From the NCBI GenBank assembly GCA_944389515.1, contig CALXMQ010000002.1, positions 71,094-135,093 of the forward strand: a DNA stretch of 64,000 bases, read 5' to 3'. Source of the DNA: an uncultured Alphaproteobacteria bacterium. GTDB taxonomy: Bacteria > Pseudomonadota > Alphaproteobacteria > Rs-D84. The position numbers and the translations under genes were made by a program. Positions 8,686 through 50,695 of this stretch are shown in pieces. Numbering within the stretch: the first letter of the stretch is position 1; every line of letters begins with the position of its first letter. Under the pieces are notes generated by a model, which saw only the letters and a list, made by a program, of their open reading frames with translations, had not been told where the DNA came from and ran no database searches.

Positions 8686-8711
8686 AAAGTTTATTGTAGC
8701 ATATTTTTAAT

Positions 8712-10325
8712 ATGAAAAAAGCACAAACATTATATATTGGTGTTGCATTGGTTGCAATTATCGCAGTAATTGGCGGTGCGGCATTGTACCACAACCATTT
8801 GCGCAGCACTGTGAACAATTATGAATATCCAACAACGCAATATGGCGCGTTTTTGGCGGCACAACATGCAATATATGTAAATGATTTTGACAGTGCAGAA
8901 AATTTTTCTGCCCAGTTAAATGACACTGATTATTCGATTGTTCAATCAACAAAATTCTTGTCTGAATTCTTGAACGGCCATATGCCAGACGAAGTGATTG
9001 TTCTGGAAGAAGAAAAAAATACCGCGTCTCGTTTAATATATGATGCATATTTGGTGCAAAACAACAAATGGGATGATTTATATGCGCGCCATAAAAAAGA
9101 TGAATCTGCGTTGGCGGCACCATTACGCATATGGTCTTCGATTGCCACAGACCATAAAAAAGACGCACTGAAATTTATAAAATCATTACCAACAAATCAA
9201 TCATGGCAAGATTTTGTATCAGGACAAATTTACGCGGAAACTGGCGATATTGACGCAGCCGCCGAATCTTTTGCCAAGGTACGTATTGATTTTATGAACA
9301 TCAATGATTATTTGTATGTGATGTCTTTTTATCACCATAATAATCTGATGGATGCGGCACATAAATTACACGATGATTTCACCGCACGACCAGGTGGCAT
9401 GTATATGCTGGATTATACAGATGTGCCAGATTGGTCAATGTTTTCAGGATACGCAAATCAACTGGCGTTCAGTTTGGTGCAAACTGTATCACACACGCAA
9501 ATAATGATGTATTCTGATTTGGCGATATTATTATTGCGTTTTGCACAAATCACTGGCACTGAATTCGGCCAAGACAGTGATGCCATCAATTATTATCTGG
9601 GGCAATTTTTCTATAACAATTCTGGCGATTATGAAAAGTATCTGTCAAAAATATCACCGGACAGTCCTTTCTATTTATTCGCAGTATTGCGAATTGCAGA
9701 AAAAAACAATGATTTAGGCGCATTACAAGATGCAATTAAACAAAACCCACTGTTTGTACCTGCAATAAACAAATTGGTTGGATACAATATCCAAAATGGG
9801 CACCGGCGCGCCGCATTACGTATTATAAATATGGCATTGGATGATGAAAATCTGAACGATATCGGTCGTGCATTTTTCTTGAAAAGCCGGGCATACATAT
9901 ATTATGCATTTGGCGATTTAGATGATGCACAATCAGATTTACATGATGCCGCAGAAACATTGCCATTGGATGCAGAAATAATATCTTTGCAGGCAAAAAT
10001 ATGGGCGGCCCAGGGACGTGAAATTGAAAACGCATATGATTATGCCATGACATTGGTAAAACAAGATCCAACCGATATTATGGCGTGGGATACGTTGGGA
10101 CGTGTGATAACTGTACGCGAAGGAATTGCACCAGCATTGGACGTATTAGTTCGTGTTGGTGAAATATCGACCACATGTTCATCTTTGTTTGAACAACTGG
10201 GCGATTTGTATGTTGCGGCGGGCGATGACAGACAGGCGCGCGACGCATATAACCGGGCAATCGAATTATCAGATGATGGATTGGTTGTTGTCCCGGAAAT
10301 TCGTAAAAAATTAAAGGATTTGTAA
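8712..10325 (+). CDS. membrane-anchored tetratricopeptide-repeat protein
   Basis: N-terminal TM helix followed by repeated TPR-like A/Y/L-rich helices (e.g. AYDYAMTLVKQDP...AWDTLGRV...GDLYVAAGDDRQARDAYNRAIEL). Confidence 0.55.
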   Translation: MKKAQTLYIGVALVAIIAVIGGAALYHNHLRSTVNNYEYPTTQYGAFLAAQHAIYVNDFDSAENFSAQLNDTDYSIVQSTKFLSEFLNGHMPDEVIVLEEEKNTASRLIYDAYLVQNNKWDDLYARHKKDESALAAPLRIWSSIATDHKKDALKFIKSLPTNQSWQDFVSGQIYAETGDIDAAAESFAKVRIDFMNINDYLYVMSFYHHNNLMDAAHKLHDDFTARPGGMYMLDYTDVPDWSMFSGYANQLAFSLVQTVSHTQIMMYSDLAILLLRFAQITGTEFGQDSDAINYYLGQFFYNNSGDYEKYLSKISPDSPFYLFAVLRIAEKNNDLGALQDAIKQNPLFVPAINKLVGYNIQNGHRRAALRIINMALDDENLNDIGRAFFLKSRAYIYYAFGDLDDAQSDLHDAAETLPLDAEIISLQAKIWAAQGREIENAYDYAMTLVKQDPTDIMAWDTLGRVITVREGIAPALDVLVRVGEISTTCSSLFEQLGDLYVAAGDDRQARDAYNRAIELSDDGLVVVPEIRKKLKDL

Positions 10326-10326
10326 A

Positions 10327-11193
10327 ATGAACGTTGGTGTAATTGGCGCAGGTGCGTGGGGTACCGCGTTGTCGATTATTTCTGCACGGGGTGGGGCGGA
10401 TGTTATATTGTGGTCTTATGACGGCGAATATAAACATTTTGATGATGTGGAAATGCCACAGAATTTACGGGTGACACAAAATATCGCTGAGATTGGTCAA
10501 TGTGATACATGGTTGATTGTAACCCCGGCGGCATTTTTTCGTGAAACATTACGCAATGCTGCACAATATTATAATAATCAACCGATAATAATTTGTACCA
10601 AGGGCGCAGAAAGCGCAACTGGTGATTTTATGTCTGAAATTATGGCGTCTGAATTACCAAACGCATCAGATTTTGGTGTTTTGTCTGGACCACAATTTGC
10701 CGCCGAAGTAGCGCGTGGTATCCCAACAGGTTCAACATTGGCCGGAACACCACGTGCCATAGAATCGGGCAGGGCAGTGTTACATTTACTGCATATAAAT
10801 TCTTGTAACGACGTTATCGGCACTGAAATGTGCGGTGTTGGTAAAAATGCGGTTGCATTGATATGCGGATATAATTCTGTTGCTGCGGCTGGGGAAAATG
10901 AACGCGCATTGATATTTACACGCGCATGGAACGAAGTGATGCAAATTGGTCTGAAATGTGGCGCACAAATGCAAACTTTCTTGGATTTATGTGGCATAGG
11001 GGATTTGTTCTTGTCCGCAACATCTGCAACCAGTCGTAACTTTGCCGGTGGGATGGCGATTGCACGTGGCGAAAAACCATCTGGCACCGTAGAAGGCATT
11101 TTTGCACTGGATGGGTTGATTGGGCGCGCAAAAAACAATGGTGTTGAAACACCAATTTTAATTGAAATGCAGAAAAAAATGGGATTAAAATAA
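10327..11193 (+). CDS. gpsA: NAD(P)H-dependent glycerol-3-phosphate dehydrogenase (shortened)
   Basis: MNVGVIGAGAWGTALS Rossmann N-terminus. 288 aa. Confidence 0.8.
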   Translation: MNVGVIGAGAWGTALSIISARGGADVILWSYDGEYKHFDDVEMPQNLRVTQNIAEIGQCDTWLIVTPAAFFRETLRNAAQYYNNQPIIICTKGAESATGDFMSEIMASELPNASDFGVLSGPQFAAEVARGIPTGSTLAGTPRAIESGRAVLHLLHINSCNDVIGTEMCGVGKNAVALICGYNSVAAAGENERALIFTRAWNEVMQIGLKCGAQMQTFLDLCGIGDLFLSATSATSRNFAGGMAIARGEKPSGTVEGIFALDGLIGRAKNNGVETPILIEMQKKMGLK

Positions 11194-11201
11194 TCACATA
11201 A

Positions 11202-11229
11202 AAATACCGGCAAATGCCGGTATTTTTAT
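11202..11229. terminator. bidirectional intrinsic terminator between convergent gpsA and the radical-SAM gene
   Basis: ataccggcaaatgccggtat flanked by A-run and T-run. Confidence 0.6.
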
Positions 11230-12239
11230 CGCGTTTTAATGAACGATTTTCCGGTTAAAATACGATAACGAATATCTTCGAATTGCGCATTTGATATCAA
11301 ACGATGACGAATATCAGACAATGCACGTGGACATCCTGAATTATTACGCCATTTTGTATTTATTTTTCGGCCAGAATTTTCACCCAATGTAACGCGCCCA
11401 AATGAATCAAACGCCATCAATACATCGCCATTGTTGGATATAAATGAAAACTGGGGCGTTTTATCATGATATGCACCATGAATATTTTTGGCGCGCCCAC
11501 CATCAAATAATGTTCCAACAGATGTGTTTAATAGCAATGTATCGCCAGCAATGTATTTTTTTAATTGTTTGCCATTTGATATTACGATGGCATCGTCTAT
11601 GCTGGTACCATTACGTTTTAGTGCATTGAATAAATCGTTAAACATATGTCTGTCGTTTTCAAATGATGCCAGGTTTATAACCACATGGGTTTCAGGACGC
11701 TTTGATAATTCATGAATAAATTTTGCACAATTTTGTATACTATGTTTGTGATATCTGTCCAATGATAATGATATTTGAAAACTATATGGTTTGCCAATCG
11801 AACTGGCCGCAGCTAAATCATCAAATACACGTGGCGTATATTTGGCATTTACCCACGCCGCATTTGTTTTAATATCTGTGCCGATATTATGATTCAAACA
11901 AAATTTTAATAATTCTGGTACATAATCAGTGGCACCAAATGCGTATGCCGCCATTATTTCACCACCAGTAAAAATAACACTGTTATTAAATTTTACATCT
12001 TGCATGGACTGGGATATATATCCCTTGATTACATCAATGGGGATAAATGCGCGCGAATTATCAGGACCGGCATTTTCGCAACAATGTGGACATTTATACC
12101 AACACCAATTTGTCGTCTTGAACACCAGAACATATGGAAAATCACGCACAATACCGCCAATCGGTAATATTTTGTCTATCAAAGTAATATTTTCTATTTT
12201 CATGACACATAAATATATCACAAAATATTTTTTCGTCAA
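11226..12239 (-). CDS. radical SAM domain protein, unknown subfamily
   Basis: CWYKCPHC matches CxxxCxxC at about residue 45. Glycine-rich SAM motif VIFTGGE. No SPASM/twitch Cys cluster. 337 aa. About 35% GC, against 43-50% in neighbours. Confidence 0.65.
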   Translation of the reverse strand: MTKKYFVIYLCVMKIENITLIDKILPIGGIVRDFPYVLVFKTTNWCWYKCPHCCENAGPDNSRAFIPIDVIKGYISQSMQDVKFNNSVIFTGGEIMAAYAFGATDYVPELLKFCLNHNIGTDIKTNAAWVNAKYTPRVFDDLAAASSIGKPYSFQISLSLDRYHKHSIQNCAKFIHELSKRPETHVVINLASFENDRHMFNDLFNALKRNGTSIDDAIVISNGKQLKKYIAGDTLLLNTSVGTLFDGGRAKNIHGAYHDKTPQFSFISNNGDVLMAFDSFGRVTLGENSGRKINTKWRNNSGCPRALSDIRHRLISNAQFEDIRYRILTGKSFIKTR

Positions 12240-12253
12240 TAGTATATTGTTAT

Positions 12254-12281
12254 AAAAAAATGGGGCAATGCCCCACTTTTA
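12254..12281 (-). terminator. hairpin plus T-run between ABC permease and the radical-SAM gene
   Basis: tggggcaatgcccca followed by a T-run on the minus strand. Confidence 0.5.
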
Positions 12282-13496
12282 TTCGTATCGTAAACTATCA
12301 ATAGGATTTAGTTTTGCGGCCTTCATTGCCGGCATAACACCAGATGCCAATCCAACCACAACCGCAACAGAAACAGATACAACAACTGGCCACATGCTGA
12401 ACGGAACTTCATAATTCATTATAAAGCGTCCAACGCCTTGGGATAACCCGACCCCTAAAATCAATCCAATCATTGAACCAATAAATGATATCAAAAGGGC
12501 TTCGGATAAAAATTGGATGATGATATGACGTTCGCGTGCACCAATGGCCTTGCGGATACCAATTTCGCGCGTACGTTCCGCCACAGACACCAACATCATA
12601 TTCATAATACCGATTGAACCAACCAACAATGACACCGCTGCGATTGCAACCAGTAACATTGTCATATATCCTGTGACACTGTCCATTGCCTCCATAACCT
12701 GTTTCATATCCATAATTTGGAAATCGTCAACTTCGTCATCAGCCAATTTATGACGGTCGCGTAACAGGGCGGTTATTTGTTCAATCGCCAGCGCATTATC
12801 CGCACCTTCGTTTAACTTTATCGTAACCATACTGACAGAATTTGGGAAACGGCTGCCTTGTAAACGTTTTTTTAATGTGGTTATTGGGATGATTATCATG
12901 TCATCTTGGCTGCCCATGGCAGAATCACCACGTTCTTTGGTTACGCCAATAATTGTAAAAGGCATATTTTGTACACGAATTATTTCGCCGACTGGGTTTT
13001 CTGGCATATTTAATTCTTCGGCTGTTTGTGGGCCAATAACGGCATATGTTGACCCATTACGCACCGCCGACTGATTAAAAAATGTGCCATATTTCATTTC
13101 CAGATTTTGAACCTGGGCATATCCTGGATATGCACCAACCATTGAAGTTGCCCAGTTTTGATTACCGTAAATTACCTGGGCAGATGCGTTTTGAATTGGA
13201 CTGAACGCGGCAACATCAGGTAATTGCCCAATGAATTCAGCATCATCAATGGTCAAAGTTTGACGACTGCCGGTACGTACACCAGCACTTTGTGCCGCAC
13301 CGGCACGTATTGTAATTGTATTTGTCCCCAGGGATGAAAACTGGTCACTGACCTGTTTTGATACAGTTTCACCAACCGCAACCATTATCACCACCGCCAT
13401 AACGCCGATAATGATGCCCAAAACCGTCAGAAATGAACGAATTTTGTTTCCACTGATGGACAACCAAGATTCTTTTAATATATCGTTAAATGTCAT
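12279..13496 (-). CDS. ABC transporter permease, MacB/FtsX family
   Basis: N-terminal TM, a large periplasmic domain, and a C-terminal FtsX-like 3-TM bundle. 405 aa. Confidence 0.8.
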   Translation of the reverse strand: MTFNDILKESWLSISGNKIRSFLTVLGIIIGVMAVVIMVAVGETVSKQVSDQFSSLGTNTITIRAGAAQSAGVRTGSRQTLTIDDAEFIGQLPDVAAFSPIQNASAQVIYGNQNWATSMVGAYPGYAQVQNLEMKYGTFFNQSAVRNGSTYAVIGPQTAEELNMPENPVGEIIRVQNMPFTIIGVTKERGDSAMGSQDDMIIIPITTLKKRLQGSRFPNSVSMVTIKLNEGADNALAIEQITALLRDRHKLADDEVDDFQIMDMKQVMEAMDSVTGYMTMLLVAIAAVSLLVGSIGIMNMMLVSVAERTREIGIRKAIGARERHIIIQFLSEALLISFIGSMIGLILGVGLSQGVGRFIMNYEVPFSMWPVVVSVSVAVVVGLASGVMPAMKAAKLNPIDSLRYE

Positions 13497-13514
13497 TTTT
13501 TGCCTGTATTATAC

Positions 13515-14258
13515 TTATTGTTGTAACGCCCGTTCATCACGCGGCACACGGCCATCGTATGTTATACGGCCGTCATAAATATGAATCAACCGATTTGAAT
13601 ATTGCGCGATTTCAAATTCATGCGTAATCATTACGATTGTGATGCCCATTTCTTGGTTCAGTTTTTTGAAAAACGATAAAATATCGTTACCCATCTTGCT
13701 GTCCAATGCGCCGGTTGGTTCGTCTGCCAAAATCAATTTAGGGTCGCCAGCCAATGCGCGCGCAATGGCAACACGCTGTTTCATACCCCCAGACAGTTGT
13801 GTTGGTAAATATGTTTCAAATTTTTCCAATCCAACACGCCGCAGCATTTCACGTGCACGATGAATTCGTTCATCCATTGGCAAACCACGATACATCAACG
13901 GCAACATAACGTTGTCCAACACGCTGCGCTTAGACAACAAATTAAACTGTTGAAAAACAAATCCGATATATTCGTTTCTGACCACAGCCAATTCATCAGA
14001 TGTTAAATGTGTAACATCACGCCCATATAATTCATATGTACCACTGGTCGGTGTATCCAATGCGCCAATAATATTCATACATGTAGATTTACCACTGCCT
14101 GACGGCCCCATAATAGATACAAATTCACCCTGGCGTACATCAAATGTGATATCAAATAAAACCTGTTGGTCGCCCCCCATTTCTAGTGGAAAGCTTTTAC
14201 AAATTTTTTTCATAGATATGATTTTAATATCACTGGATTTAGTGACTTTTTTCTGCAT
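13515..14258 (-). CDS. ABC transporter ATP-binding protein (MacB/LolD-like)
   Basis: Walker A GPSGSGKST, signature LSGGMKQR, and Walker B ILADEPTGALD. Confidence 0.85.
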   Translation of the reverse strand: MQKKVTKSSDIKIISMKKICKSFPLEMGGDQQVLFDITFDVRQGEFVSIMGPSGSGKSTCMNIIGALDTPTSGTYELYGRDVTHLTSDELAVVRNEYIGFVFQQFNLLSKRSVLDNVMLPLMYRGLPMDERIHRAREMLRRVGLEKFETYLPTQLSGGMKQRVAIARALAGDPKLILADEPTGALDSKMGNDILSFFKKLNQEMGITIVMITHEFEIAQYSNRLIHIYDGRITYDGRVPRDERALQQ

Positions 14259-14325
14259 GATAATCTCTCTCTATTATTTTTTCTGATTATATCATTTTTT
14301 TATAAATTTGCAAAAATACATTGCA

Positions 14326-14353
14326 TAAAAAAACGGGGTAAACCCCCGTTTTT

Positions 14354-14356
<3 letters not shown>
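14326..14356 (-). terminator. intrinsic terminator after mreB
   Basis: acggggtaaacccccgt flanked by A-run and T-run. Confidence 0.55.
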
Positions 14357-15433
<1,077 letters not shown>

Positions 15434-15526
15434 CTATAAATCGTGATAATCAAAAAATCAAGCAACCATAATAAATTTATGCTTTTTTATTTGCTTATCT
15501 GTATATTGTGGTATTATACACCAATC

Positions 15527-15877
15527 ATGCGAGACACAATAAAGAAACATATTGACTTTTTACCCAACGATGCAGATTTATCTGCACGTTGTGCTTTTTT
15601 CTTTGTGCGTGCAAGGCCGGCAAAAATACCTGAATCACCACGATATGGACTGATTGCGGCCAAACGCACATTCAAACTGGCCGTGCACAGAAACCGGGCA
15701 AAACGGTTATTGCGCGACTGGATTCGCCATAATGAACGATATATGTGTAATACATTAGATTATATTTTTGTTGCACGTCATGGAATACTGAACGCATCAC
15801 GCCCAGATGGATATGCCGCAATGCGCAAGGCATTAAATTATATAAAAAAATTAAATGCAGAAAAATCACAAGAATAA
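15527..15877 (+). CDS. rnpA: ribonuclease P protein component (start trimmed to an internal ATG from the ORF-track 15443)
   Basis: [30 protein letters not shown] matches the RnpA core. The extra N-terminal 28 aa of the ORF are hydrophobic junk. Confidence 0.7.
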
Positions 15878-15890
15878 ATTTTCTATACGC

Positions 15891-16097
15891 ATGGCAATCG
15901 CGATGGTGCGTGTATATCAATCTTGTATTTCACCGTTTATTGGCGGACGCGCCGCATGCCGTTTTATCCCAACGTGCAGTGAATATACCGCATGTGCGAT
16001 TGAAAAATATGGTGTTTTACGTGGGACATTTATGGGAATACGGCGTATTATGCGTTGTCGTCCAGGCGGTGGATTCGGGTACGACCCCGTCCCTTGA
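15891..16097 (+). CDS. yidD: membrane protein insertion efficiency factor YidD
   Basis: [24 protein letters not shown] matches the YidD family. Follows rnpA. No yidC follows here. Confidence 0.8.
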
Positions 16098-16193
16098 CAT
16101 CCGGTGCGATTGTGGTAAAATTTCAGGCACATTGAAAAAATCAAAGAATTTTGATATAAAGATATAAAAGAGTATATAAACAAAGGATAAAAA

Positions 16194-16646
16194 ATGTCAT
16201 TTCGTGCAACCGTTGAATCTATGTCAAAGATAATGGATGAAATGGGGATTACAGAATTAGACTTGGAACGTCAATTTTTGTTCGGCGTGTATCGCAAACA
16301 TATTCATTTATCAAAGCAACAGGCAACTGCTGTTGCAATGCCGAATTTCCCGGTGGCGGCCGAATCAAAAAATACAAACAGTGAACCTGCGGGGGATGAA
16401 AATGCAATCAGTGGATATGCACTGAAATCACCAATGGTTGGTGTTGCATATTTGGCACCAGAACCAGGTGCAAAACCATTTACATCGGTTGGTGCACAAA
16501 TCAAGGTTGGTGATACTGTCGCATTGATAGAAGCCATGAAAACATTTAACCCAATAAAATCGGACAAAGATGGTGTTGTCAAAGAAATCTTGGTTTCTGA
16601 TGGCCAGGCCGTGGAATTCGATCAACCGATTATTGTTATTGAATAA
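16194..16646 (+). CDS. accB: acetyl-CoA carboxylase biotin carboxyl carrier protein
   Basis: C-terminal biotinyl motif EAMKTFNPIKSDKDGVV. Confidence 0.85.
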   Translation: MSFRATVESMSKIMDEMGITELDLERQFLFGVYRKHIHLSKQQATAVAMPNFPVAAESKNTNSEPAGDENAISGYALKSPMVGVAYLAPEPGAKPFTSVGAQIKVGDTVALIEAMKTFNPIKSDKDGVVKEILVSDGQAVEFDQPIIVIE

Positions 16647-16656
16647 GTAAGCAAAA

Positions 16657-18057
16657 ATGTCACAAATTAAAAAAGTTTTAATTGCCAATCGTGGCGAAAT
16701 TGCATTGCGTATTATTCGTGCATGTCGCGATATGGGTATTCGTACTGTTGCGGTATATTCAACTGTTGATAAAAATGCAATGCATGTCCAGTTGGCTGAT
16801 GAATCTGTTTGTATTGGACCTGGGCCGTCCAAGGATTCTTATTTGAACGAATCTGCAATTTTAACGGCGGCATTATTGACTAATTCAGATGCAATTCATC
16901 CAGGATATGGTTTTTTATCAGAACGTGCTGATTTCGCACAAAAGGTTGAACAACACGGTTTAATCTGGATTGGGCCGTCGGCTGCGATGATTGAAAAAAT
17001 GGGGGACAAGGTAAATGCAAAACAAACTGCGATAAAATGCGGTCTGCCGGTGGTGCCGGGGTCTGATGGCGCAGTTGAAACATTAGAAGATGCATATGCA
17101 TGGGCCGAAAAAATAGGGTACCCCGTTATGTTAAAGGCCGCGGCTGGTGGCGGCGGACGTGGTATTCGTCCGGTATTATCAGCAGATCAAATGGCCGAAG
17201 CGTTCCAGATGACCAAGAACGAGGCTAAATCCGGTTTTGGCGATGATACTTTGTATATGGAAAAACTGTTGATGCATCCACGCCATATTGAATTCCAGGT
17301 ATTGGGTGACAAACATGGCAACGTTGTTATATTTGGTGAACGCGATTGTTCTTTGCAACGTAAAAATCAAAAGGTTATGGAAGAATGCCCTGCGGCAATT
17401 TTAACCCAGAAACAACGCGACGATATGATTGAAATCTGTAAAACCGCCGCTAAAAAAATGGGATATGTAAATGCAGGCACTTTTGAATTTATGTTCGAAG
17501 ATGGCAAGTTTTATTTCCTGGAAATGAATACCCGGTTACAGGTGGAACATCCTGTGACAGAAATGGTATATGGCGTTGATTTGGTGCGTGAACAAATTCG
17601 TGTGGCGGCTGGGGAAAAATTGGGATATACCCAATCAAACGTCGTTCCACATGGACACGCAATCGAATTTCGTATCAATGCCGAAGATCCAGAAACATTT
17701 GTCCCAAATCCAGGTAAAATAACATTATACGCCCCATCTGGTGGACTGGGCGTGCGCGTGGACAGTGCCGTGTATACTGGATACACAATTCCACCGACAT
17801 ATGATTCAATGATTGCAAAACTGATTGTTCATGCACAAAGCAGACCGGCATGTATAATGCGTGCAACACGTGCATTGGATGAATTTGTTATCGAAGGTGT
17901 AAAAACAACGATTCCGTTACAACAAAAATTATTAAAGAATCGCGATGTAAAAACATTGAACTTTGATAACCATTGGTTGGAATCATATTTGAAATCAGAA
18001 AAAGAAAAAACAACAAAAAAACAAAAGGCAGATGATAAAAAATCAGATGCAGAATAA
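16657..18057 (+). CDS. accC: acetyl-CoA carboxylase biotin carboxylase subunit
   Basis: ATP-grasp. RIIRACRDMGIRTVAVYS...GGGGRGIR. Confidence 0.95.
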   Translation: MSQIKKVLIANRGEIALRIIRACRDMGIRTVAVYSTVDKNAMHVQLADESVCIGPGPSKDSYLNESAILTAALLTNSDAIHPGYGFLSERADFAQKVEQHGLIWIGPSAAMIEKMGDKVNAKQTAIKCGLPVVPGSDGAVETLEDAYAWAEKIGYPVMLKAAAGGGGRGIRPVLSADQMAEAFQMTKNEAKSGFGDDTLYMEKLLMHPRHIEFQVLGDKHGNVVIFGERDCSLQRKNQKVMEECPAAILTQKQRDDMIEICKTAAKKMGYVNAGTFEFMFEDGKFYFLEMNTRLQVEHPVTEMVYGVDLVREQIRVAAGEKLGYTQSNVVPHGHAIEFRINAEDPETFVPNPGKITLYAPSGGLGVRVDSAVYTGYTIPPTYDSMIAKLIVHAQSRPACIMRATRALDEFVIEGVKTTIPLQQKLLKNRDVKTLNFDNHWLESYLKSEKEKTTKKQKADDKKSDAE

Positions 18058-18064
18058 AAAAATC

Positions 18065-18092
18065 ACAGGCCGGCAAATGCCGGCCTTTTTAT
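18065..18092. terminator. bidirectional terminator between accC and the convergent sspB-like gene
   Basis: aggccggcaaatgccggcct followed by a T-run. Confidence 0.55.
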
Positions 18093-18105
18093 ATATTTTT
18101 TATAA

Positions 18106-18576
18106 TTATTTTTTTCTGTTTTTCCTGAATTCATCCAATGATACAACACGGCCAGTATCTGGGACAGTGCCAGGTTTATCGTCCAATGGCAATTCCATAT
18201 CGTTATCTGCGGCCGCTGGGGCAGAACCACGCGGATGAAATGACAACATAAAATCAACGGATGGATCTTTGAATTCAACCAATGCGGAAAAAGGCACACG
18301 AATAAAAAATGGGCGGCCATCAAAAGTCAGTTGAACACCAAATTCTTTGTCTGATACATGTAAATTGTTATACGAATACTGTAACACAATCGTCATAATA
18401 TCAGGATATCGTATACGCAAAAAATCCGGCAATACAACACCAGGTGCACGTGTTTTGAACGTTATGTAAAAATGTGCCCCATCACCCAGTCCGTTAAATT
18501 GTGCATGAATCAATGCTTCTTTGACAACAGACTTTAACGCATTATCCAGTAATGTTTGATAATCAATCTTGCTCAT
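18106..18576 (-). CDS. sspB: ClpXP adaptor SspB-like protein (alpha-type)
   Basis: 156 aa. The N-terminal domain resembles the SspB fold family, and the acidic tail ends in a basic C-terminus (RKNRKK) that looks like an XB-type ClpX-binding tail. Assignment by recall, not alignment. Confidence 0.45.
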   Translation of the reverse strand: MSKIDYQTLLDNALKSVVKEALIHAQFNGLGDGAHFYITFKTRAPGVVLPDFLRIRYPDIMTIVLQYSYNNLHVSDKEFGVQLTFDGRPFFIRVPFSALVEFKDPSVDFMLSFHPRGSAPAAADNDMELPLDDKPGTVPDTGRVVSLDEFRKNRKK

Positions 18577-19760
18577 ATTTCTTGTCCTGGCACCAGTATA
18601 TTATTTATTTCACCATTGATGCAAGTAACAAATACTGCATTTGGGACGTTTGCAAATACATTTGCATCTAAACCAGTTGCCCAAACCTGGGCATCAGCCG
18701 CATCCAGTTCATGAAACAGTCGTGCACGCGCATCAGCATCCAGATGTGCGGCGGCTTCGTCCAATAATATCAAAGGCTGATGATTTGTTTTGGCATGAAT
18801 CAATTTTGCATGCGCCAGTATTAAATCTAATAATACCATTTTTTGTTGACCAGTACTGGTCAACGCAGCAGGCAAGTTCAGTTTATGGTTAAACACACCA
18901 AAATCTGATTTATGTGGCCCGTCCAAAACCATTTTATCACCAATCAATTCACGCGCAGACAATAAATATTCTAAATATTTGCGTTCTGCCGCCGCAGACG
19001 CCATGCCATCTATCAACATTTGTTCAACAGTGCCAGATACAGTTACCGCACAATCAGATAAAAAATAATTTAATTGCCCAGCATATTGAACACGTGCCGT
19101 GGCAACAGATGTCGCAACCCCAGCAATTTGTGTATCCAGCGCACCCAACCAATTTTCATCGCGTCCATTTTTTAATGCGAACGCACGTTCCGCCAGTAAT
19201 TTTGATAATCTGGCAACGCGACCGGCATGCGCCGAATCAAAACTGGCGGTCAATCTGTCAAAAAAAGCACGACGTTCAGATGCCGCATCTATAAACAATC
19301 TGTCTTCACGTGGGGTTACCCATACCGTACGTAAATGCGTTCCTAAATCATTTAATGTGGCGGCGTCACCATCAATACGTGCACGGCGATTTGTATCACC
19401 AGGTGCAAAATTCACTGATATTTCAGTATCGTCATTTAACGCCGCAAATACAGAAAAACCACCATTGCCATCAAAACGTGCAATATCAGACATCGCCGCA
19501 CCACGTAAACCACGTTCACCAGACAGCATGGATACCGCTTCTAATACAGCGGTTTTACCCGCGCCATTTGGCCCAGTAATAATAACATTATGTCGACCAT
19601 ACGTTTGAATACGACATGATTTATGATTACGAAAATCAGTCAAAGTAATTGTTTTTATCATGGCACGATAATACACCCAGCCCAGAAAAAAAACAACATG
19701 TTGTTCATATTTTGGTCCGCCCAATTTAACCGGACAAATATGATGCAAAACAAAAAACAC
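18573..19760 (-). CDS. recF: DNA replication and repair protein RecF
   Basis: Walker A GPNGAGKT, and an SMC-like C-terminal signature. Confidence 0.85.
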   Translation of the reverse strand: MFFVLHHICPVKLGGPKYEQHVVFFLGWVYYRAMIKTITLTDFRNHKSCRIQTYGRHNVIITGPNGAGKTAVLEAVSMLSGERGLRGAAMSDIARFDGNGGFSVFAALNDDTEISVNFAPGDTNRRARIDGDAATLNDLGTHLRTVWVTPREDRLFIDAASERRAFFDRLTASFDSAHAGRVARLSKLLAERAFALKNGRDENWLGALDTQIAGVATSVATARVQYAGQLNYFLSDCAVTVSGTVEQMLIDGMASAAAERKYLEYLLSARELIGDKMVLDGPHKSDFGVFNHKLNLPAALTSTGQQKMVLLDLILAHAKLIHAKTNHQPLILLDEAAAHLDADARARLFHELDAADAQVWATGLDANVFANVPNAVFVTCINGEINNILVPGQEI

Positions 19761-20000
19761 CCATTTTCATGGGTGTTTTTTATTTGGAGGCCTGGGTCGG
19801 AAAGTTCACATTTTTGCACACAAAGCGTGCAAAAAACGTTGCTGGCGCAACTTGATTCACCATTCGTATGGCTTTTTCTGCGTGCACAGCACTTGAAAAA
19901 TCTGACTCATATGCGAACCGGGCCGGTTCGATAGCACCAAAATCCAAACAAAAAACACCCATTTTTATGGGTGTTTTTTATTTGGAGGCCTGGGTCGGAA
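19752..20000. repeat. 51-nt direct repeat (19752-19802 and 19950-20000; 1 mismatch) comprising a terminator hairpin plus the last 17 nt of tRNA-Cys
   Basis: aaaaaacacccatttt[c/t]atgggtgttttttatttggaggcctgggtcggaa is present twice, with a 147-bp unique spacer between the copies. Confidence 0.8.
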
Positions 20001-20056
20001 TCGAACCGGCATACAAGGATTTGCAGTCCTCTGCATAACCACTCTGCCACCAGGCC
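19983..20056 (-). tRNA. tRNA-Cys (GCA)
   Basis: Reverse complement GGCCTGGTGGCAGAGTGGTTATGCAGAGGACTGCAAATCCTTGTATGCCGGTTCGATTCCGACCCAGGCCTCCA. Cloverleaf with GCA anticodon. CCA is encoded. Confidence 0.9.
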
Positions 20057-20156
20057 AATCTGAATATGTGACACATACTAAGCAAAAAAAAATTGTAATT
20101 CAACAGAAAAATTGTATTATATAGATATTATTAGGGAACAAGAGAGAGTTTTACAT

Positions 20157-21500
20157 ATGAAAAAAGCATTTTCAGTGATTTTTTTTATGCTGCCGGGTTT
20201 GGTTTTCGCGGCACCTGATGAAAATTGCCGTACAATGACCAATGTCCCTGACGGTGAATTGACATTACAACAGGTTATCGAATTGGGATTGTGTCGAAAT
20301 CCAGAAACAGCGGCGGCATATTTATCTTTGGAATCTGCGCGGTTTAATAAAAATGCTGGTTATTCACAATATTTGCCATCTGTCAGTGCGTCTGCATCAG
20401 CCAGTTTGCCGTACCGCAACAATGAATTTGCAGACTGGTCATATGGCGCATCGATTTCAGCATCGTATCTGATATTTGATTTTGGAAAACGTTTATCTGA
20501 TGTAAACCAACTGATTGATACATGGCGTGCAACTGGGTTTGATTACAGTGAATCTGTTCAAAATTATGTATACAGTGTTATTGGGGCATATTATGCATTA
20601 TTAAATGCAGACGCGGATGTTATGACCGCACGTGCCGTACAACAGGTATCAAAAACCGCCAAAGAAACAGCAGATAAAAAATTTAACGCTGGGGCAGTGG
20701 CACGCGCCGATGTATTAAAAGCAGACGTTACATTGGCCAGCAGTGAATTAGACCTGGAACGTGCAAAAAACAACCGCGAAATTGCCAAGGGAACGTTATT
20801 GGCTAAATTAGCCTTCCCAGCTGACCAAGATATAAAAATTGCGGATATGCCCGCAGAATTCGGCAGTGCATCTGAAAATAAAAGTATTGATGAACTGATT
20901 GAAATTGCGCGTGAAAAACGTCCTGACTTATTACGCGCAACGGCAAACAAAGACGCGGCATGGCACCGCAGAAACAGCACATTTTTATCAAATCTGCCAA
21001 CAATTTCCGCCAGTGGCAGTTTGTCATGGAATAATACACCGTCTGATGTGTATAACGCCGGGTCTGACCAGTGGAGTGGCAGTATCGGTATCCGGGCATC
21101 TATGCCTATATTTACTGGGTTTTCAAATTTTTACAGCAGTCGCGCCGCCCAGGCAAATTATGAACGCGCCATAGAACAAGAAAGACAAACAGTTGATAAT
21201 GCAATGTTGGACGTGTTCAGTGCATATCAAAACTATAAGACAGCGCAAACTGTATTGAAACAAACAGAAACATTATTGACATCTGCCAAGGAAACAGAAA
21301 ACGTTACCGCAGGTATGTACAAGGTAGGCAAGGCAACAATGCTGGATTGGCAACAGGCATTGGCAGATTTGGCCGATGCACACAAACAAAATAATGCTGC
21401 AAAATATGATTTATTTACAAAACGCGCGGCATTGGCATTGGCAATCGGTGATATCAAAGAAGGTTTAATCAAGGACGATGGAGAATCAACAGATGAATAA
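20157..21500 (+). CDS. TolC-family outer membrane efflux protein
   Basis: Signal peptide MKKAFSVIFFMLPGLVFA. Two repeated alpha/beta TolC halves. Start trimmed to the ATG with an AGAGAGAG RBS. Confidence 0.8.
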   Translation: MKKAFSVIFFMLPGLVFAAPDENCRTMTNVPDGELTLQQVIELGLCRNPETAAAYLSLESARFNKNAGYSQYLPSVSASASASLPYRNNEFADWSYGASISASYLIFDFGKRLSDVNQLIDTWRATGFDYSESVQNYVYSVIGAYYALLNADADVMTARAVQQVSKTAKETADKKFNAGAVARADVLKADVTLASSELDLERAKNNREIAKGTLLAKLAFPADQDIKIADMPAEFGSASENKSIDELIEIAREKRPDLLRATANKDAAWHRRNSTFLSNLPTISASGSLSWNNTPSDVYNAGSDQWSGSIGIRASMPIFTGFSNFYSSRAAQANYERAIEQERQTVDNAMLDVFSAYQNYKTAQTVLKQTETLLTSAKETENVTAGMYKVGKATMLDWQQALADLADAHKQNNAAKYDLFTKRAALALAIGDIKEGLIKDDGESTDE

Positions 21501-22674
21501 AGAACAAAAACAGCCCAAACAACACAAATTTTGGAATTGGGTACGTCGACGTAAATGGTGGATTTTATTATTCATCATTGTCGCAGGTGGATTTGTGTAC
21601 TTTATGAGTGGCGATGACAACCAAGGAACTGGTTTCGCAACGGCGACAATATCGCGTGGCGATTTGCGCCAGGTTGTAACCGCAACTGGTGAAATACAGC
21701 CACTGAATACCATCAATGTTGGTTCCCAGGTCAGCGGCACAATCGAAGCAATTTATGTCGATTATAATTCCAAAGTGAAAAAGGGTGATGTACTGTTGGA
21801 AATTGAACCGTCGGTATTACAGGCATCTGTGGATGAAGCATACGCATCATTGGTCAGTGCAGAATCACAACGCAATTACGCAAAAAACGAATATGAACGT
21901 AATCAAATCTTGTACGAAGATGGATTTATTTCACGTGCAGAACTAGAACAATCGCAAACAACGTATGAACAGGCAGAACAATCTGTGAATCGTATGCAAT
22001 CACAATATGACCGTGCTGTGACAAATTTGGGATATGCAACGATTACGTCACCGGTGGACGGCACAGTTATTTCACGCCAGGTTGACGTTGGACAAACGGT
22101 GGCGGCATCTTTCCAAACACCTGACTTATTTGAAATCGCCGAAGATTTATCAAAAATGCAAATTGAAACCGCAGTGTCAGAGGCTGATATTGGTATGATT
22201 ACCGAAGGGTTGCCAGTTACTTTTACAGTAGATGCGTACCCAACACAAACGTTCGAAGGTACCGTACGCCAAGTACGCTTATCGCCAACAATCACATCAA
22301 ATGTTGTTGTGTATACAGTGGTTATTGATGTTGATAACAGTGATTTGAAATTAAAACCTGGGATGACTGCGTTCGTTACCATTTTAATTTCTGAAAAAAC
22401 AGATGTATTGAAGGTACAAAATTCTGCATTGATTCTGCGTAATTTTGATGGCATCGTAACAGACCCAGGCGACGCGACACCTGATGACCATTTGGCAATC
22501 CAGCGCGTTGTTGATGGCATACAAACCGTTATATTGGTGCCATATGAAAAGGGTTTGGTAACCGCAACAGAAACAGAAATTATTTCTGATGAAATCCAAG
22601 AAGGTGACCGAATAATATTTGGTCGATATGGATTGGCATCAACTGGTTCGGCACGTATGGGGCCGCCAAGATAA
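21478..22674 (+). CDS. efflux transporter periplasmic adaptor (HlyD/MacA family)
   Basis: N-terminal TM, coiled-coil, lipoyl and beta-barrel domains. Overlaps the tolC-like stop. Confidence 0.75.
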   Translation: MENQQMNKEQKQPKQHKFWNWVRRRKWWILLFIIVAGGFVYFMSGDDNQGTGFATATISRGDLRQVVTATGEIQPLNTINVGSQVSGTIEAIYVDYNSKVKKGDVLLEIEPSVLQASVDEAYASLVSAESQRNYAKNEYERNQILYEDGFISRAELEQSQTTYEQAEQSVNRMQSQYDRAVTNLGYATITSPVDGTVISRQVDVGQTVAASFQTPDLFEIAEDLSKMQIETAVSEADIGMITEGLPVTFTVDAYPTQTFEGTVRQVRLSPTITSNVVVYTVVIDVDNSDLKLKPGMTAFVTILISEKTDVLKVQNSALILRNFDGIVTDPGDATPDDHLAIQRVVDGIQTVILVPYEKGLVTATETEIISDEIQEGDRIIFGRYGLASTGSARMGPPR

Positions 22675-22703
22675 AAAACGGGGCAACACCCCGTTTTTTT
22701 TAT
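22673..22703. terminator. bidirectional intrinsic terminator
   Basis: acggggcaacaccccgt followed by T8. Confidence 0.55.
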
Positions 22704-34697: not shown

Positions 34698-34843
34698 AAA
34701 AATACACAAAAAGGCCGGTAAATGCCGGCCAATTATTTTATATATTTATATCGCAATCATATATCCACATATCAATATTGCGACAACCATTATTACAAAT
34801 ACTATTTTTTGTTTCGTTGCGATTTTCATCTTTTCCCCCATAT

Positions 34844-35245
34844 TTACCAACCAGTTGTCAAATTCTGGCAACCAAAATTTTCACCATTACTTAAAAATCC
34901 CAATAATATTCCGATTGAAAACAATAACGCAAATCCGATAATCATTGGAACACCGATTGACTTTAACCCTTCGGTTACACTGTCTTTGCCAGCAATCTTG
35001 CCAGACGTTATTGCGTCCCAACCATATTTTGCCAATATAAATCCAGCACCAACAAATGCCAATGTTCGCAGTAATTTGAACACTTCTTGGAATCGCGCAA
35101 TCATGTCACACAATCCACTGTTCATTGCTGGGGCTGCAAATGCCGGGACAACCAATACGGCTGAAACACACGCAAAAATTACAGTATATAATCCAACGTT
35201 TTTTTTCGGTTGTTTTATTTTTACAGAATTATTGATTTTCCGCAT
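34844..35245 (-). CDS. VirB2/TrbC-like type IV secretion pilin (orphan)
   Basis: 133 aa. Long signal peptide ending AFAAPA, then two hydrophobic segments separated by a short polar loop, and a G-rich C-terminus. Consistent with the TrbC/VirB2 architecture. Confidence 0.45.
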   Translation of the reverse strand: MRKINNSVKIKQPKKNVGLYTVIFACVSAVLVVPAFAAPAMNSGLCDMIARFQEVFKLLRTLAFVGAGFILAKYGWDAITSGKIAGKDSVTEGLKSIGVPMIIGFALLFSIGILLGFLSNGENFGCQNLTTGW

Positions 35246-35366
35246 ATTTTATCCTTTTAATTTGTGCCGAAAAAAAACGTTCGTTTTTTTTCGGCATATA
35301 TTTTACATATATTATACCAATTTTTACCCCCATGCGCAAATTATATTTACGCATGGGTATAAATTG

Positions 35367-37739
35367 TTATTTGTCACGAATTTGTGCATCACAGCGTTTT
35401 TCAACGTTTGCGATAACGGCACTTTGCAGATTTTGTAAATCTGAATCAGACATTTTTTCCATTGGTGTAATCGTTATTGTAAACGCAATGGATTTTTTCC
35501 CATCACCCATAATATACGCATCAAATACAACAACATCTGTTATGCGTGCATCAGTGGCCAATGCTGTATTCACCAATTTTTCAGCCGGCGTTGATTCATC
35601 GGTAATAAATGCAAAATCACGTGTTATCGGCTGAAATTCAGATAATTTTGGTTCATGTGGCGAACGCGTACAGGGTAACATATCTGCATTTTCAATAATT
35701 GCGATATTTACACGGGTCTTTATTTTTAATGCATGTGCCACAGATGGATGTAATTCACCAAATTCAGCAATTTTCCGTTTACCTTGATACAATGCACCAT
35801 ATCTGAACGGATGCGCCCAACGTGGCGGATTATCAGATGACACAGTGAATTTTTGCCCATGCAGTAACGCCATTATATCCGCCTTGGTATCATAAATATC
35901 AGACGTACGATTGCGGCGTGTCCAATGACGTGGTGCAATATCCCCAGTACGTACAATGCATATTTGTGTATGCTGCATTTCTGGCATATCACCGTCAAAC
36001 ACAGTTCCCAGTTCAAATAAATTCAAATCTGGATATCCACGTTTTTCATTTTCAGAAACAAACGCCAACATATTCCCCAACAAATTGTTACGCGCGGTAT
36101 CCATATTGCTTACAATCGGATTTGATATTTTAGTGATTTTTTTATCAGACAATAATTCTTCTGTTTTAGAATCACCGAATCCAAATGATTTTACTTCGTT
36201 CAAACCACGTGCTGATAATTCACGCTTTATATTCATGTAATAATCACGATGTGGCACAGAATCTGTTGGTTTATGAACTGCCACCTGGGCGATATTATCA
36301 TAACCATAAATACGGATTAAATCAGACACTATATTTTCTGGTATTTCTACACCTATGCGATTAGATGGCGGAGTTAAAATCCAACTTTGTTCATCCTCAT
36401 CTATATCATATCCCAATTCAACCAAGATATTATGTTGTTTAACTTCGTCCATTTCTATACCAGTTTTTTTACTGAATATATCTGGTGTATATCTTATCTT
36501 TGGAACATACTTATTTATTATTATATCTTTCCAATCTTCCCAGAATTCTGCGGTTGCGCCGCCATATTCTGCGGGCGGATTAAATAATTCACCTGCGGCA
36601 ATTGTACCGTAAATATGGCCACCACATTGTGCCAATATTATACTTGTTGCATTTGCAAGTGCATATGGCGTCAATGTTAAATCTATGCCACGTTCATATC
36701 TGTATGAAGAATCTGTTGATATACCTAAACGCTTAGATGTTTTACGTACAGATACAGGATTAAAATATGCACTTTCCAGAATAATATTTTTGGTTTTATC
36801 AGTGGTCATACCACGTGCACCACCAACAACCCCAGCCAATGCCAATATACCGGTATCATCTGCGATTACCATATCTGTATCGCATAATGTATGTTCGTTT
36901 CCAAATAAATCTGTGAACTTTTCACCATTTGTTGCCATACGTACAGTGATATCCCCGTTTATTTCATCTGCATCAAAACAATGCATTGGCTGACCCATAT
37001 CATAGCAAATATAATTTGTCGCATCGATTGGCGCGTTCTTTGGGTTTATACCTATTGCACGCAATCTTGATGATATTTTGCTGTTACTTGGTGCAATTTT
37101 TATATCATGAATTTCGCACAAAGAATATCCAAGACATTTATCTGTTTTTACATGTACTTGTCTGGTGCCTGTACCATATTCAGGAAAATTATCCGCATGT
37201 GCAATATATTCACCCATACCAGCCGCCGATAAATCGCGCGCAATACCACGTACAGACAAATAATCAGGACGATTTGGGGTAATACCTGCATCAAATACTG
37301 TTTCTGTATTTAACACGGGTGTGCCAATTTTTGTATCTGGGGCCAATTCTATTATTCCACTGTGGTCATCGTTTATCCCCAGTTCGCGACCACTGCACAT
37401 CATGCCGTCAGATAACACACCGCGTAATTTGCCACTTTTAATTTCATGACCTGCGATTATACAGCCCGGCAATGCCAGCGCAGATATCAATCCAGAACGT
37501 GCATTTGGTGCACCACAAACAACCTGGCGTAATTTACCTGTGCCATCGTCAACCTGTAATATATGTAAATGATCACTGCCGTCCATTGGGACGCATTCAA
37601 CAATTTTTGCCGCAATCGGGGCAACAGGTTCAATTAAATCTTCGACTTCCAATCCTGTGCGTGTCAAGGTATCAGCAATCTGCGATGCCGTGGCGTCAGT
37701 TTTCAAATAATCTTTTAACCAATCATATGTCCATTTCAT
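35367..37739 (-). CDS. pheT: phenylalanine--tRNA ligase beta subunit
   Basis: 790 aa. N-terminal tRNA-binding domain, B3/4, B5 and FDX-ACB domains. Confidence 0.95.
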   Translation of the reverse strand: MKWTYDWLKDYLKTDATASQIADTLTRTGLEVEDLIEPVAPIAAKIVECVPMDGSDHLHILQVDDGTGKLRQVVCGAPNARSGLISALALPGCIIAGHEIKSGKLRGVLSDGMMCSGRELGINDDHSGIIELAPDTKIGTPVLNTETVFDAGITPNRPDYLSVRGIARDLSAAGMGEYIAHADNFPEYGTGTRQVHVKTDKCLGYSLCEIHDIKIAPSNSKISSRLRAIGINPKNAPIDATNYICYDMGQPMHCFDADEINGDITVRMATNGEKFTDLFGNEHTLCDTDMVIADDTGILALAGVVGGARGMTTDKTKNIILESAYFNPVSVRKTSKRLGISTDSSYRYERGIDLTLTPYALANATSIILAQCGGHIYGTIAAGELFNPPAEYGGATAEFWEDWKDIIINKYVPKIRYTPDIFSKKTGIEMDEVKQHNILVELGYDIDEDEQSWILTPPSNRIGVEIPENIVSDLIRIYGYDNIAQVAVHKPTDSVPHRDYYMNIKRELSARGLNEVKSFGFGDSKTEELLSDKKITKISNPIVSNMDTARNNLLGNMLAFVSENEKRGYPDLNLFELGTVFDGDMPEMQHTQICIVRTGDIAPRHWTRRNRTSDIYDTKADIMALLHGQKFTVSSDNPPRWAHPFRYGALYQGKRKIAEFGELHPSVAHALKIKTRVNIAIIENADMLPCTRSPHEPKLSEFQPITRDFAFITDESTPAEKLVNTALATDARITDVVVFDAYIMGDGKKSIAFTITITPMEKMSDSDLQNLQSAVIANVEKRCDAQIRDK

Positions 37740-49783: not shown

Positions 49784-50695
49784 TCAACGTGTATAAGTTT
49801 TATTATTCAATTTAGGCATATTGATATTAGATTTATTGGTTGAATATCTGTCGCATAGTTTTTCAACCTTGTCATCAAAACGTGATAATCTGTCACGATA
49901 ATATGCAATCCAACGTCGACCAAAATGTTCAGATGTTTCATTTTGACGCGCAGGAATATATGAAATTTCACGCATACATTTTTCCCAATCAGATTTTGTA
50001 GCGTTTTTTTCAATAAAATCTAAATAATCCGCGATTACATCAACCAGTTGTTTTCCACGACTGTTTTTTATATTACCACCAGCAGATAAAAATGCCTGAA
50101 TTCCAGCAAGATTGGCATACATTTCATCTTCGACCATTGTATATCCAACCCATTTCATTTTTTCAAAAATGTCACTGGGGGCATTTGGGTTCGGCATGGT
50201 GCGAATATATGCCCGGGTTCTTTGCGACATAGTATATTTTTTATTTATCCGTTTACGACGCCGAATAAAATCAAGCAAAGAAAAATCAAATTTATAATGA
50301 CCAGCAGCCAATTCCCGGGACTTGCGATATGCATGTGTCAATTCATGTGTCAAAATTTCAGCCATCATTTGTCGGTCGATAAAAACATTATCACCATCAA
50401 CACGCACAGGCATATTTATATTTAATTCCAGTTTGATTTTGCCATCACGTAATGAATTACCATTTATAAAAAATGCATCGGCAAATTCTTGGGCATGACC
50501 ATTATCATATTGTTCAGGGGTCAGTCTGTAAAAACAAAAAAATACACGTGATGCATCATCACGAATAAATTCAGGCGCCATCATTGCCGCATCAGTTGAA
50601 GGAATACGATATTTTGTTTCATATTTATCTGTTTTTTCAGATTTATATTTATTTATATATTTATCAATAACAGATAAAATATCCCCAGATTTCAT
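49784..50695 (-). CDS. hypothetical protein with HExxH metallopeptidase-like motif
   Basis: 303 aa, no signal peptide. The only recognisable feature is AEILTHELTHAYR. Confidence 0.35.
   Translation of the reverse strand: MKSGDILSVIDKYINKYKSEKTDKYETKYRIPSTDAAMMAPEFIRDDASRVFFCFYRLTPEQYDNGHAQEFADAFFINGNSLRDGKIKLELNINMPVRVDGDNVFIDRQMMAEILTHELTHAYRKSRELAAGHYKFDFSLLDFIRRRKRINKKYTMSQRTRAYIRTMPNPNAPSDIFEKMKWVGYTMVEDEMYANLAGIQAFLSAGGNIKNSRGKQLVDVIADYLDFIEKNATKSDWEKCMREISYIPARQNETSEHFGRRWIAYYRDRLSRFDDKVEKLCDRYSTNKSNINMPKLNNKTYTR

Follow-up and report, generated by a model that had tools for sequence, protein, structure and literature searches.

We analysed a 64,000-nucleotide stretch of DNA (hereafter the window) from an uncultured Alphaproteobacteria bacterium of the order Rs-D84 (GenBank assembly GCA_944389515.1, contig CALXMQ010000002.1, positions 71,094 to 135,093 of the forward strand), and focus here on the gene at 11226..12203 on its minus strand, which encodes a predicted radical S-adenosylmethionine (SAM) enzyme, abbreviated rSAM. 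The product (325 amino acids plus stop) is EpeE/YydG-like, with a single predicted [4Fe-4S] site. Upstream of it on the same strand lie the two halves of a split MacB: an ATP-binding cassette (ABC) permease of the MacB type (FtsX fold, with a periplasmic core domain; 12279..13496) and its ABC ATPase (13515..14258), the latter preceded by a promoter-like site at 14286-14314. The putative partners of this pair are encoded on the plus strand, namely a TolC-family outer-membrane channel (20112/20157-21500; two OEP repeats, 203 bits) and a MacA-like periplasmic adaptor, or membrane fusion protein (MFP; 21478..22674). An original prediction for this DNA had drawn open reading frames (ORFs) for these genes, all of which are present. 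The rSAM protein belongs to an unannotated family, best described as EpeE-like radical-SAM enzymes with a Cys-free, twitch-like domain.

Motifs, fold and nearest relative of the rSAM protein

Alignment of 36 homologues identifies 38 invariant positions. These include the cluster-binding motif C34-x3-C38-x-H40-C41-C42-E43 (CWYKCPHCCE; 12078..12104, minus strand), whose CxHCC form is common to EpeE (CNASCDHCC), and T79-G-G-E82 (TGGE; 11958..11969, minus strand), the SAM-binding 'GGE' motif, which aligns to FTGGE of EpeE. Also invariant are D-I-K112-T113-N, S145-x-S147-x-D149-x-x-H152, G236-R237-A238 and a C-terminal block, A-F265-D266-S-F-G269-R-V-T-L273-G274-E275-N-S-G-x-K-I281; the best-conserved C-terminal segment (LMAFDSFGRVTLGENSGRKI, residues 262-281; 11361..11420, minus strand) is modelled as a β-hairpin. 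The only invariant cysteines of the family are C34, C38, C41 and C42, and none is conserved outside residues 34-42 in the 36 aligned homologues, the C-terminal 280 residues included; the protein can therefore hold one [4Fe-4S] cluster at most, and an auxiliary cluster is impossible. A SPASM or twitch Cys motif (Gx4C ... CxxCx5Cx3C) is absent from the C terminus, and SPASM models score no more than 16 bits. The CWYKCPHC and GGE motifs and the lack of a SPASM domain, all read by eye in the original prediction, are borne out.

Membership of the radical-SAM superfamily rests on motifs and fold because the PF04055 score of the window protein (22.5 bits) does not reach the gathering cutoff of 29.5, a precomputed match to this model being found on about half of the homologues. 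The protein has the CxxxCxxC signature, which aligns to the cluster motif of EpeE, together with GGE and a partial (β/α)6 triose-phosphate isomerase (TIM)-barrel core, with six alternating β/α elements in the AlphaFold2 model. No curated Pfam or NCBIfam family scores above cutoff. The best NCBIfam match is YydG itself (TIGR04078, 30.3 bits against a cutoff of 300; 20-44 bits on more distant tiers of the family), whereas housekeeping models are far off (NrdG2 14 bits; NirJ, MoaA and QueE at noise level), as are the NCBIfam and Pfam models for RNA-modifying, cofactor-biosynthetic and activase families, likewise at noise level. The absence of any model above cutoff agrees with the earlier impression that the protein is not QueE, MoaA, BioB, LipA, HemW or RlmN.

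Searches of known structures converge on one enzyme. A profile search of all PDB sequences returned EpeE/YydG alone (E 6e-9), and hhalign of the rSAM family against EpeE gives 96.2% probability over residues 32-209. We built an AlphaFold2 model on the family alignment (predicted local distance difference test (pLDDT) 91.4, predicted template-modelling score (pTM) 0.90); in Foldseek, nine EpeE chains rank first (E about 2e-12, 310-317 columns, TM score 0.55, 13% identity), about five orders of magnitude ahead of SuiB (8e-8) and viperin (6e-7), which are followed by DesII and AbmM. All 33 Foldseek matches at E<=0.001 are radical-SAM enzymes, and no structure of RlmN, MiaB, QueE, PflA or NrdG stands among the top 50. 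By sequence and by predicted fold, EpeE/YydG is the closest known relative of the rSAM protein, which probably derives from the EpeE lineage and shares its way of working.

The relationship extends, at the level of the model, into the C-terminal region. EpeE is defined by a radical-SAM cluster plus one auxiliary [4Fe-4S] cluster held in an extended twitch, or 'T-SPASM', domain, and its Cys223 donates a hydrogen atom to the peptide Cα radical from the opposite face (PMC13012085). Reassembling residues 30-256 of the EpeE chain from the alignment outputs (chain numbering is native plus 25) locates D210 and C222/C223 within the twitch Gx4C hairpin, 'PGYD-IVYHHDGEIYP-CC-SP'. In a MAFFT alignment bridged by more distant relatives, this hairpin falls on VLMAFDSFGRVTL-GE of the window protein and Cys222-Cys223 of EpeE is matched by Gly274-Glu275; the full-length Foldseek superposition (317 columns) agrees on the hairpin. 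Residues 262-281 would accordingly be read, on the model, as the equivalent of the EpeE twitch-type hairpin. An intermediate tier of relatives (P0131, P0134, P0136 and P0141) carries a single Cys just after the hairpin, at the G-E-N-S-G that is invariant in the Enterousia family.

Expression unit, gene order and distribution

The rSAM gene is preceded by a predicted sigma-70-type promoter at 12212..12239 on the minus strand (TTGACG, a 16-nt spacer and an extended -10, TG-TATATT; 10 of 12 matches). The TTG at 12239, taken as the start of a 337-residue ORF in the original prediction, supplies the opening triplet of the -35 hexamer TTGACG, and because it sits inside that box the longer frame is over-extended. 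The true start is ATG 12203, from whose Met the 36 homologues align, and 325 residues is also the length that most gene callers assign to the 97%-identical cluster. Only 8 nt separate the end of the -10 box from this ATG, with no Shine-Dalgarno sequence present; the mRNA is therefore probably leaderless or nearly so. In 47 of 63 species loci, and in every class of gene context, including those in which the gene directly follows MacB, TTGAC recurs 34-42 nt upstream of the rSAM ATG and is followed by a TG-extended -10. In most of the remaining loci this -35 box stands farther off, 46-56 nt upstream of the start codon, and an AAGGTGG Shine-Dalgarno sequence is present. Two start architectures are apparent: one in which the -10 box ends 6-9 nt before the ATG (the 47 loci above), suggestive of leaderless mRNA, and a minority form with a short leader and AAGGTGG (L024, L030, L032, L039, L045, L069, L070, L072 and L074).

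The gene appears bounded on both sides by terminators, in flanks of only 75 bp (terminator plus promoter) and 32 bp. Directly 3' of the MacB stop lies a terminator-like hairpin (GGGGCAUUGCCCC followed by U7; 12250..12280, minus strand; dG -14.7 kcal/mol, z -4.1), which is the hairpin and T-run noted earlier between permease and rSAM gene, and a canonical or comparable terminator follows MacB in about 6 of the 14 loci in which the two genes are co-directional. On the other side, between the convergent rSAM and gpsA genes, a hairpin with a 14-bp palindrome and A/T runs on both sides (11190..11232; dG -19.9, z -6.3) is probably a bidirectional terminator. Because of the promoter, its conservation and the terminators, the rSAM gene is predicted to be an autonomous monocistronic unit, insulated from MacB in the window by a terminator; the independent expression proposed earlier gains support from these signals.

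Base composition does not set the gene apart. Its G+C content (GC) is 35.8% (27.6% at third codon positions, GC3), against 40.5 +/- 3.1% for the 39 long ORFs of the window, which makes it the third lowest, within 1.6 standard deviations; the AT-richness remarked on in the original prediction is real, but the gene is not an outlier. Low GC is not peculiar to it because other long window ORFs are equally low or lower. Low-GC ORFs in the range 33.9-35.7% lie at 49784-50695 (minus), 34722-35438 (plus), 45982-47598 (plus) and 54547-56169 (minus).

Family models assign the neighbouring ABC pair to the MacB type. The permease scores 168 bits with PF12704 (MacB_PCD) and 83 bits with PF02687 (FtsX), and matches the MacB model NF007826 at 259 bits (E 7e-77) over MacB residues 253-646; lolCE reaches 55 bits (cutoff 362), LolC 42 and LolE 14. 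The ATPase matches the other end of the same MacB model (236 bits, E 9e-70, residues 5-227), with further matches to DarD (231 bits), LolD (212 bits) and DevA (201 bits). The adaptor reaches 179 bits with TIGR01730 (cutoff 95) and 166 bits, below cutoff, with the MacA model NF008606. TolC, MFP, ABC and MacB genes are contiguous and co-directional in nine related species, because of which the TolC-like and MFP genes can be assigned to the ABC pair of the window; Lol systems have no such linkage. By family assignment the exporter is a MacB-type tripartite system, formed by a split MacB with MacA-like and TolC-like partners, and not LolCDE. This supports the partnership first suggested, and the possibility, raised at the same time, that the pair is LolCD-type lipoprotein-release machinery is not borne out. 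Directly upstream of the TolC-like gene is a tRNA gene (19986-20056, minus strand); in L023 and L074 its position is held by tRNA-Cys(GCA), a conserved 5' boundary of the tolC-mfp unit.

We compared 65 species loci, including the window, and mapped their arrangements on a neighbour-joining tree of the enzyme. ABC, MacB and rSAM genes are co-directional in 14 loci, all in the window's clade, and nine of these extend to TolC-MFP-ABC-MacB-rSAM. The ABC pair adjoins the rSAM gene divergently in six further loci, which form one monophyletic group; adjacency is found in 20/65 loci, in two orientations. The pair lies 2-4 kb away in another six, and there is none within 6 kb in the remaining 39. These arrangements are permutations of one origin-proximal housekeeping block, whose genes include parAB, gidB, a tetratricopeptide repeat (TPR) gene, gpsA, mreB, rnpA, yidD, accBC, sspB, recF, tRNA-Cys, ompA, udg and infC, and the downstream neighbour of the rSAM gene is always convergent (gpsA, parB, fabZ or infC). 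In more distant tiers, from other small genomes, the gene lies between dnaG and ychF/sufBD or after rpsA-cmk, and not beside transporters. Because all arrangements permute one block and adjacency tracks phylogeny, the proximity of rSAM and MacB is, as far as gene order tells, clade-level synteny, and no evidence for a RiPP (a peptide made by the ribosome and then modified) export cassette. Given the colinear five-gene string in nine species, rSAM and the pump may share an ancestral or facultative link. Across window positions 8700-22700 and loci L001-L080, the syntenic block is seen to be reshuffled by local inversions between Enterousia species, and in one clade the ABC-MacB pair alone is inverted.

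The family is rare: among 1.84 billion cluster representatives, an exhaustive profile search picked out 346 at E<=1e-3 and no more than 37 at E<1e-30. A word-indexed search gave 180 relatives, almost all unnamed and the rest called 'hypothetical protein' or 'radical SAM protein', from uncultured Alphaproteobacteria; the family is absent from curated libraries and from the literature searched. Scanning one genome for each GTDB species, we recovered 64 loci, always with a single gene (38-97% identity). All belong to metagenome-assembled genomes (MAGs) of gut origin (chickens, horses, ruminants and humans) that carry the label Candidatus Enterousia or uncultured Alphaproteobacteria/proteobacteria, with two binned as Rickettsiales and Muribaculaceae. 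Rs-D84 consists of uncultured gut bacteria whose genomes measure about 0.75-1.0 Mb and hold about 850 genes; they lack the tricarboxylic acid (TCA) cycle and respiration and are proposed to depend on partner cells (PMC12306168). Retention of the gene in genomes of this size therefore suggests selection, and synteny in 64 species at 38-97% identity, with the 38 invariant residues, therefore points to purifying selection. The gene appears to be vertically inherited and is syntenic across the lineage. A lineage-specific radical-SAM enzyme that is seemingly kept in every sampled species of these stripped-down genomes likely performs an indispensable task, for which there is no annotation; uncharacterised radical-SAM subfamilies are common.

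Substrate search and competing explanations

Neither flank of the rSAM gene in the window contains an ORF of at least 18 residues, and no intergenic one lies within 1.5 kb, in keeping with the original remark that no obvious precursor ORF is nearby. Clustering all ORFs of 18-130 residues within 1.5 kb of the gene across the 65 loci (2,855 small ORFs) revealed no recurrent precursor; the recurrent small-ORF families are shadow frames of parB, ompA, gpsA and infC and, after masking, translated terminators and one non-coding element resembling a small RNA (sRNA). No protease gene is adjacent to the rSAM gene, and scans of the gaps for tRNA, tmRNA and Rfam families at gathering threshold gave nothing relevant.

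Several candidates in related loci were considered and set aside. The frame WRSGIEKSYCEMTPRF, in the MacB-rSAM gap of L003, L017, L023 and L074, was rejected as a peptide, being part of the non-coding element (~270 nt). This element, absent from the window, follows the MacB terminator and precedes the rSAM promoter in L003/4/5, L017, L023 and L074 (L003:7717-7990, L017:5660-5924, L023:5654-5873 and L074:5640-5844). Its minus strand gives a sub-threshold match to sRNA-Xcc1 (RF02221; 44.5 bits, E 1e-6, gathering threshold 53), and it could represent an sRNA that lacks annotation or the end of a mobile element. Small secreted Cys-rich proteins and lipoproteins encoded in the L018, L023 and L074 gaps were rejected as substrates, being sporadic (3-4 loci) and absent from the window. 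The Cys-rich proteins have a signal peptide and C-x-x-C / G-Y-Y repeats (L023:4912-5208 (minus), L023:5212-5766 (minus), L074:5079-5591 (minus) and L016:2526-3155 (plus)), and the lipoproteins are paralogues of 120 residues in the MacB-to-rSAM gap of L018 (5159-5521 and 5541-5906, both plus). In a distant tier with 284-residue rSAM proteins, the gene is translationally coupled to that of a 343-residue protein, with a 4-bp overlap (L082:6852-7883 (plus), also in L083 and L084). This protein, which is K/Q/E-rich, of low complexity and without a Pfam match, carries a cluster of Cys residues at its C terminus and may serve that lineage as a partner or substrate.

We propose that the rSAM gene encodes an autonomous, vertically inherited, EpeE-like enzyme whose substrate would be a peptide or protein from a gene elsewhere in the genome. 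A reduced [4Fe-4S]+ cluster would cleave SAM to the 5'-deoxyadenosyl radical, which would abstract a hydrogen atom from this substrate, bound by β-augmentation to the Cys-free, 'twitch-like' hairpin 262-281. In that hairpin the thiol donor is replaced (Gly274-Glu275-Asn-Ser-Gly), and with no such donor the radical would therefore be resolved differently from EpeE, probably otherwise than by its Cys-mediated epimerisation, with Glu275 possibly serving as an acid or base. The split MacB and its TolC and MFP partners would be an ordinary MacAB-TolC-type exporter that does not need the rSAM enzyme. In the descriptive parts of this account our confidence is high; the overall picture we regard as evenly balanced between right and wrong, and a peptide or protein substrate, argued by analogy, is a tentative choice that falls a little short of that balance. 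Several observations weigh against the proposal. The single-cluster, small-molecule enzymes viperin, DesII and AbmM are the next-best structural matches; the equivalence of the hairpins is not significant by sequence alone, both the profile and the HH local alignments ending at EpeE chain residue 204; TolC-MFP-ABC-MacB-rSAM is perfectly colinear in nine species; in L025 and L029, MacB and the rSAM gene are not separated by a terminator; and the peptide or protein step is carried over from a relative at 13% identity and TM 0.55.

The main alternative, unlikely in our judgement yet ahead of the other rivals, is an enzyme acting on a small molecule (a nucleotide, sugar-nucleotide or metabolite, in the manner of viperin, DesII or AbmM), perhaps in the salvage or envelope metabolism of auxotrophs. 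Like viperin and DesII the protein lacks an auxiliary cluster, their folds match it at E 6e-7 to 4e-6, no peptide substrate is found nearby, and relatives have a weak N-terminal similarity to pVip; yet EpeE leads by about five orders of magnitude in Foldseek E value and is the sole PDB match at the sequence level, PADLOC returns no match for the window protein, and the pVip scores of its relatives (no more than 25 bits) cover the N-terminal cluster-binding region only. Its housekeeping and envelope neighbours (gpsA, accBC, mreB, fabZ/lpxD and ompA) would suit such a role, but merely mirror the conserved origin-proximal core block. A RiPP maturase and export cassette, in which the enzyme modifies a ribosomal peptide encoded in trans and MacAB-TolC exports it, as in epeXEPAB (peptide, rSAM, protease and ABC transporter) or darobactin, is less probable still. 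The nearest relative is indeed a RiPP epimerase with an ABC transporter in its operon (PMC13012085, PMC12871923), and the five-gene colinearity and the two orientations of adjacency are what such a cassette might leave; against it stand the lack of a precursor ORF in the flanks or recurring within 1.5 kb, the conserved promoter of the rSAM gene and the terminator 3' of MacB, and the distribution of the ABC pair, which is missing within 6 kb in 39 loci, is adjacent only along phylogenetic lines and leaves the outgroup tiers without neighbouring transporters. The similarity of the ATPase to DarD, nearly at the level of MacB, is generic to MacB-type ATPases, LolD and DevA scoring close behind. 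The peptide-maturase and export role first hypothesized divides accordingly: peptide modification finds some support in the likeness to EpeE, whereas the export unit does not, adjacency being confined to one clade plus one divergent monophyletic group.

Some of that cassette would survive in a bolder proposal, which we consider slightly more doubtful again: the enzyme would found a mechanistically new EpeE-like branch that kept the twitch hairpin, lost the auxiliary cluster and the thiol donor and has an invariant Glu275 instead. Its gene would ancestrally have been the fifth of a TolC-MFP-ABC-MacB-rSAM cassette, and the enzyme would introduce a radical modification (D-residues by a non-thiol route, desaturation or cross-linking) into a trans-encoded peptide or secreted protein, exported by these gut bacteria, obligately dependent on partners, to interact with other cells. 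Very improbable is a highly diverged housekeeping enzyme, such as a glycyl-radical activase or one that modifies RNA or protein: a core-like gene with housekeeping neighbours, in reduced genomes with fast sequence divergence, might hide one, but no housekeeping model of NCBIfam or Pfam comes near its cutoff, no such structure appears among the top 50 fold matches and none of these enzymes has the invariant C-terminal motifs. The idea of an AT-rich gene of foreign or mobile origin, acquired recently, or of a relic in decay, for which the low GC and GC3 would speak, is effectively refuted by a GC inside the window distribution, by synteny and 38 invariant residues across 64 species, and by the intact reading frame and strong promoter; there are no plasmid or PADLOC matches, and PHROGs gives only a generic, weak N-terminal radical-SAM-domain match (24.6 bits).

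Comparison with known systems

The exporter resembles MacAB-TolC of E. coli in its MacB periplasmic core and FtsX fold, MFP and TolC channel, the four genes being colinear in nine relatives. It differs in that MacB is split into two genes and the window TolC and MFP genes are 6 kb off on the other strand; with equivalog cutoffs not reached, the assignment is at the level of family, not of orthologue. The darobactin locus likewise places MacB-type subunits (DarB, DarC and DarD by their NCBIfam names) beside a radical-SAM gene, and DarD is the family behind the 231-bit ATPase match. In contrast to that locus, the rSAM locus has no precursor gene and its rSAM gene has its own promoter; the protein lacks SPASM and is unrelated to darobactin maturases, the DarW model reaching 16 bits in one distant relative only and the DarB and DarC models 19-20 bits.

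Viperin/pVip and DesII share with the window protein a single [4Fe-4S] cluster, a length of about 300 residues and an N-terminal CxxxCxxC, and are second-tier fold matches (E about 1e-6 to 1e-7). Their similarity is confined to the cluster-binding region, and the context of the rSAM gene is neither defence nor sugar biosynthesis. A viperin-like role in defence is rejected, given that the window protein has no PADLOC match, that its relatives stay at or below 25 bits and that plasmid matches are absent.

EpeE (PDB 8AI1-8AI6; TIGR04078) is nearest in size (319 residues, against 325) and in its motifs, with CxxxCxHCC-S/A-x-P, FTGGE, N-G/A-x-W on β3 and S-x-D-x-YH on β4; 'VGAAK' probably corresponds to the 'GGRAK' motif, and a C-terminal β-hairpin is placed at the equivalent position. 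The rSAM protein is nevertheless not to be filed as a YydG-family epimerase, since it fails the EpeE-defining features beyond the common radical-SAM core. It has no conserved C-terminal Cys and so no auxiliary [4Fe-4S] cluster, and no counterpart of Cys223 or Asp210, which align to Gly274-Glu275 and to Leu/Met. The rSAM locus has no adjacent EpeX/YydF-like precursor or EpeP-like protease, as found in epeXEPAB / yydFGHIJ, and where EpeE belongs to a toxin operon of a firmicute (Bacillus subtilis), the rSAM gene is core-like and monocistronic in a Gram-negative alphaproteobacterium with a reduced genome. The family is a natural relative of EpeE that is free of both the auxiliary cluster and the Cys donor, and could show what the T-SPASM cluster and Cys223 are for.

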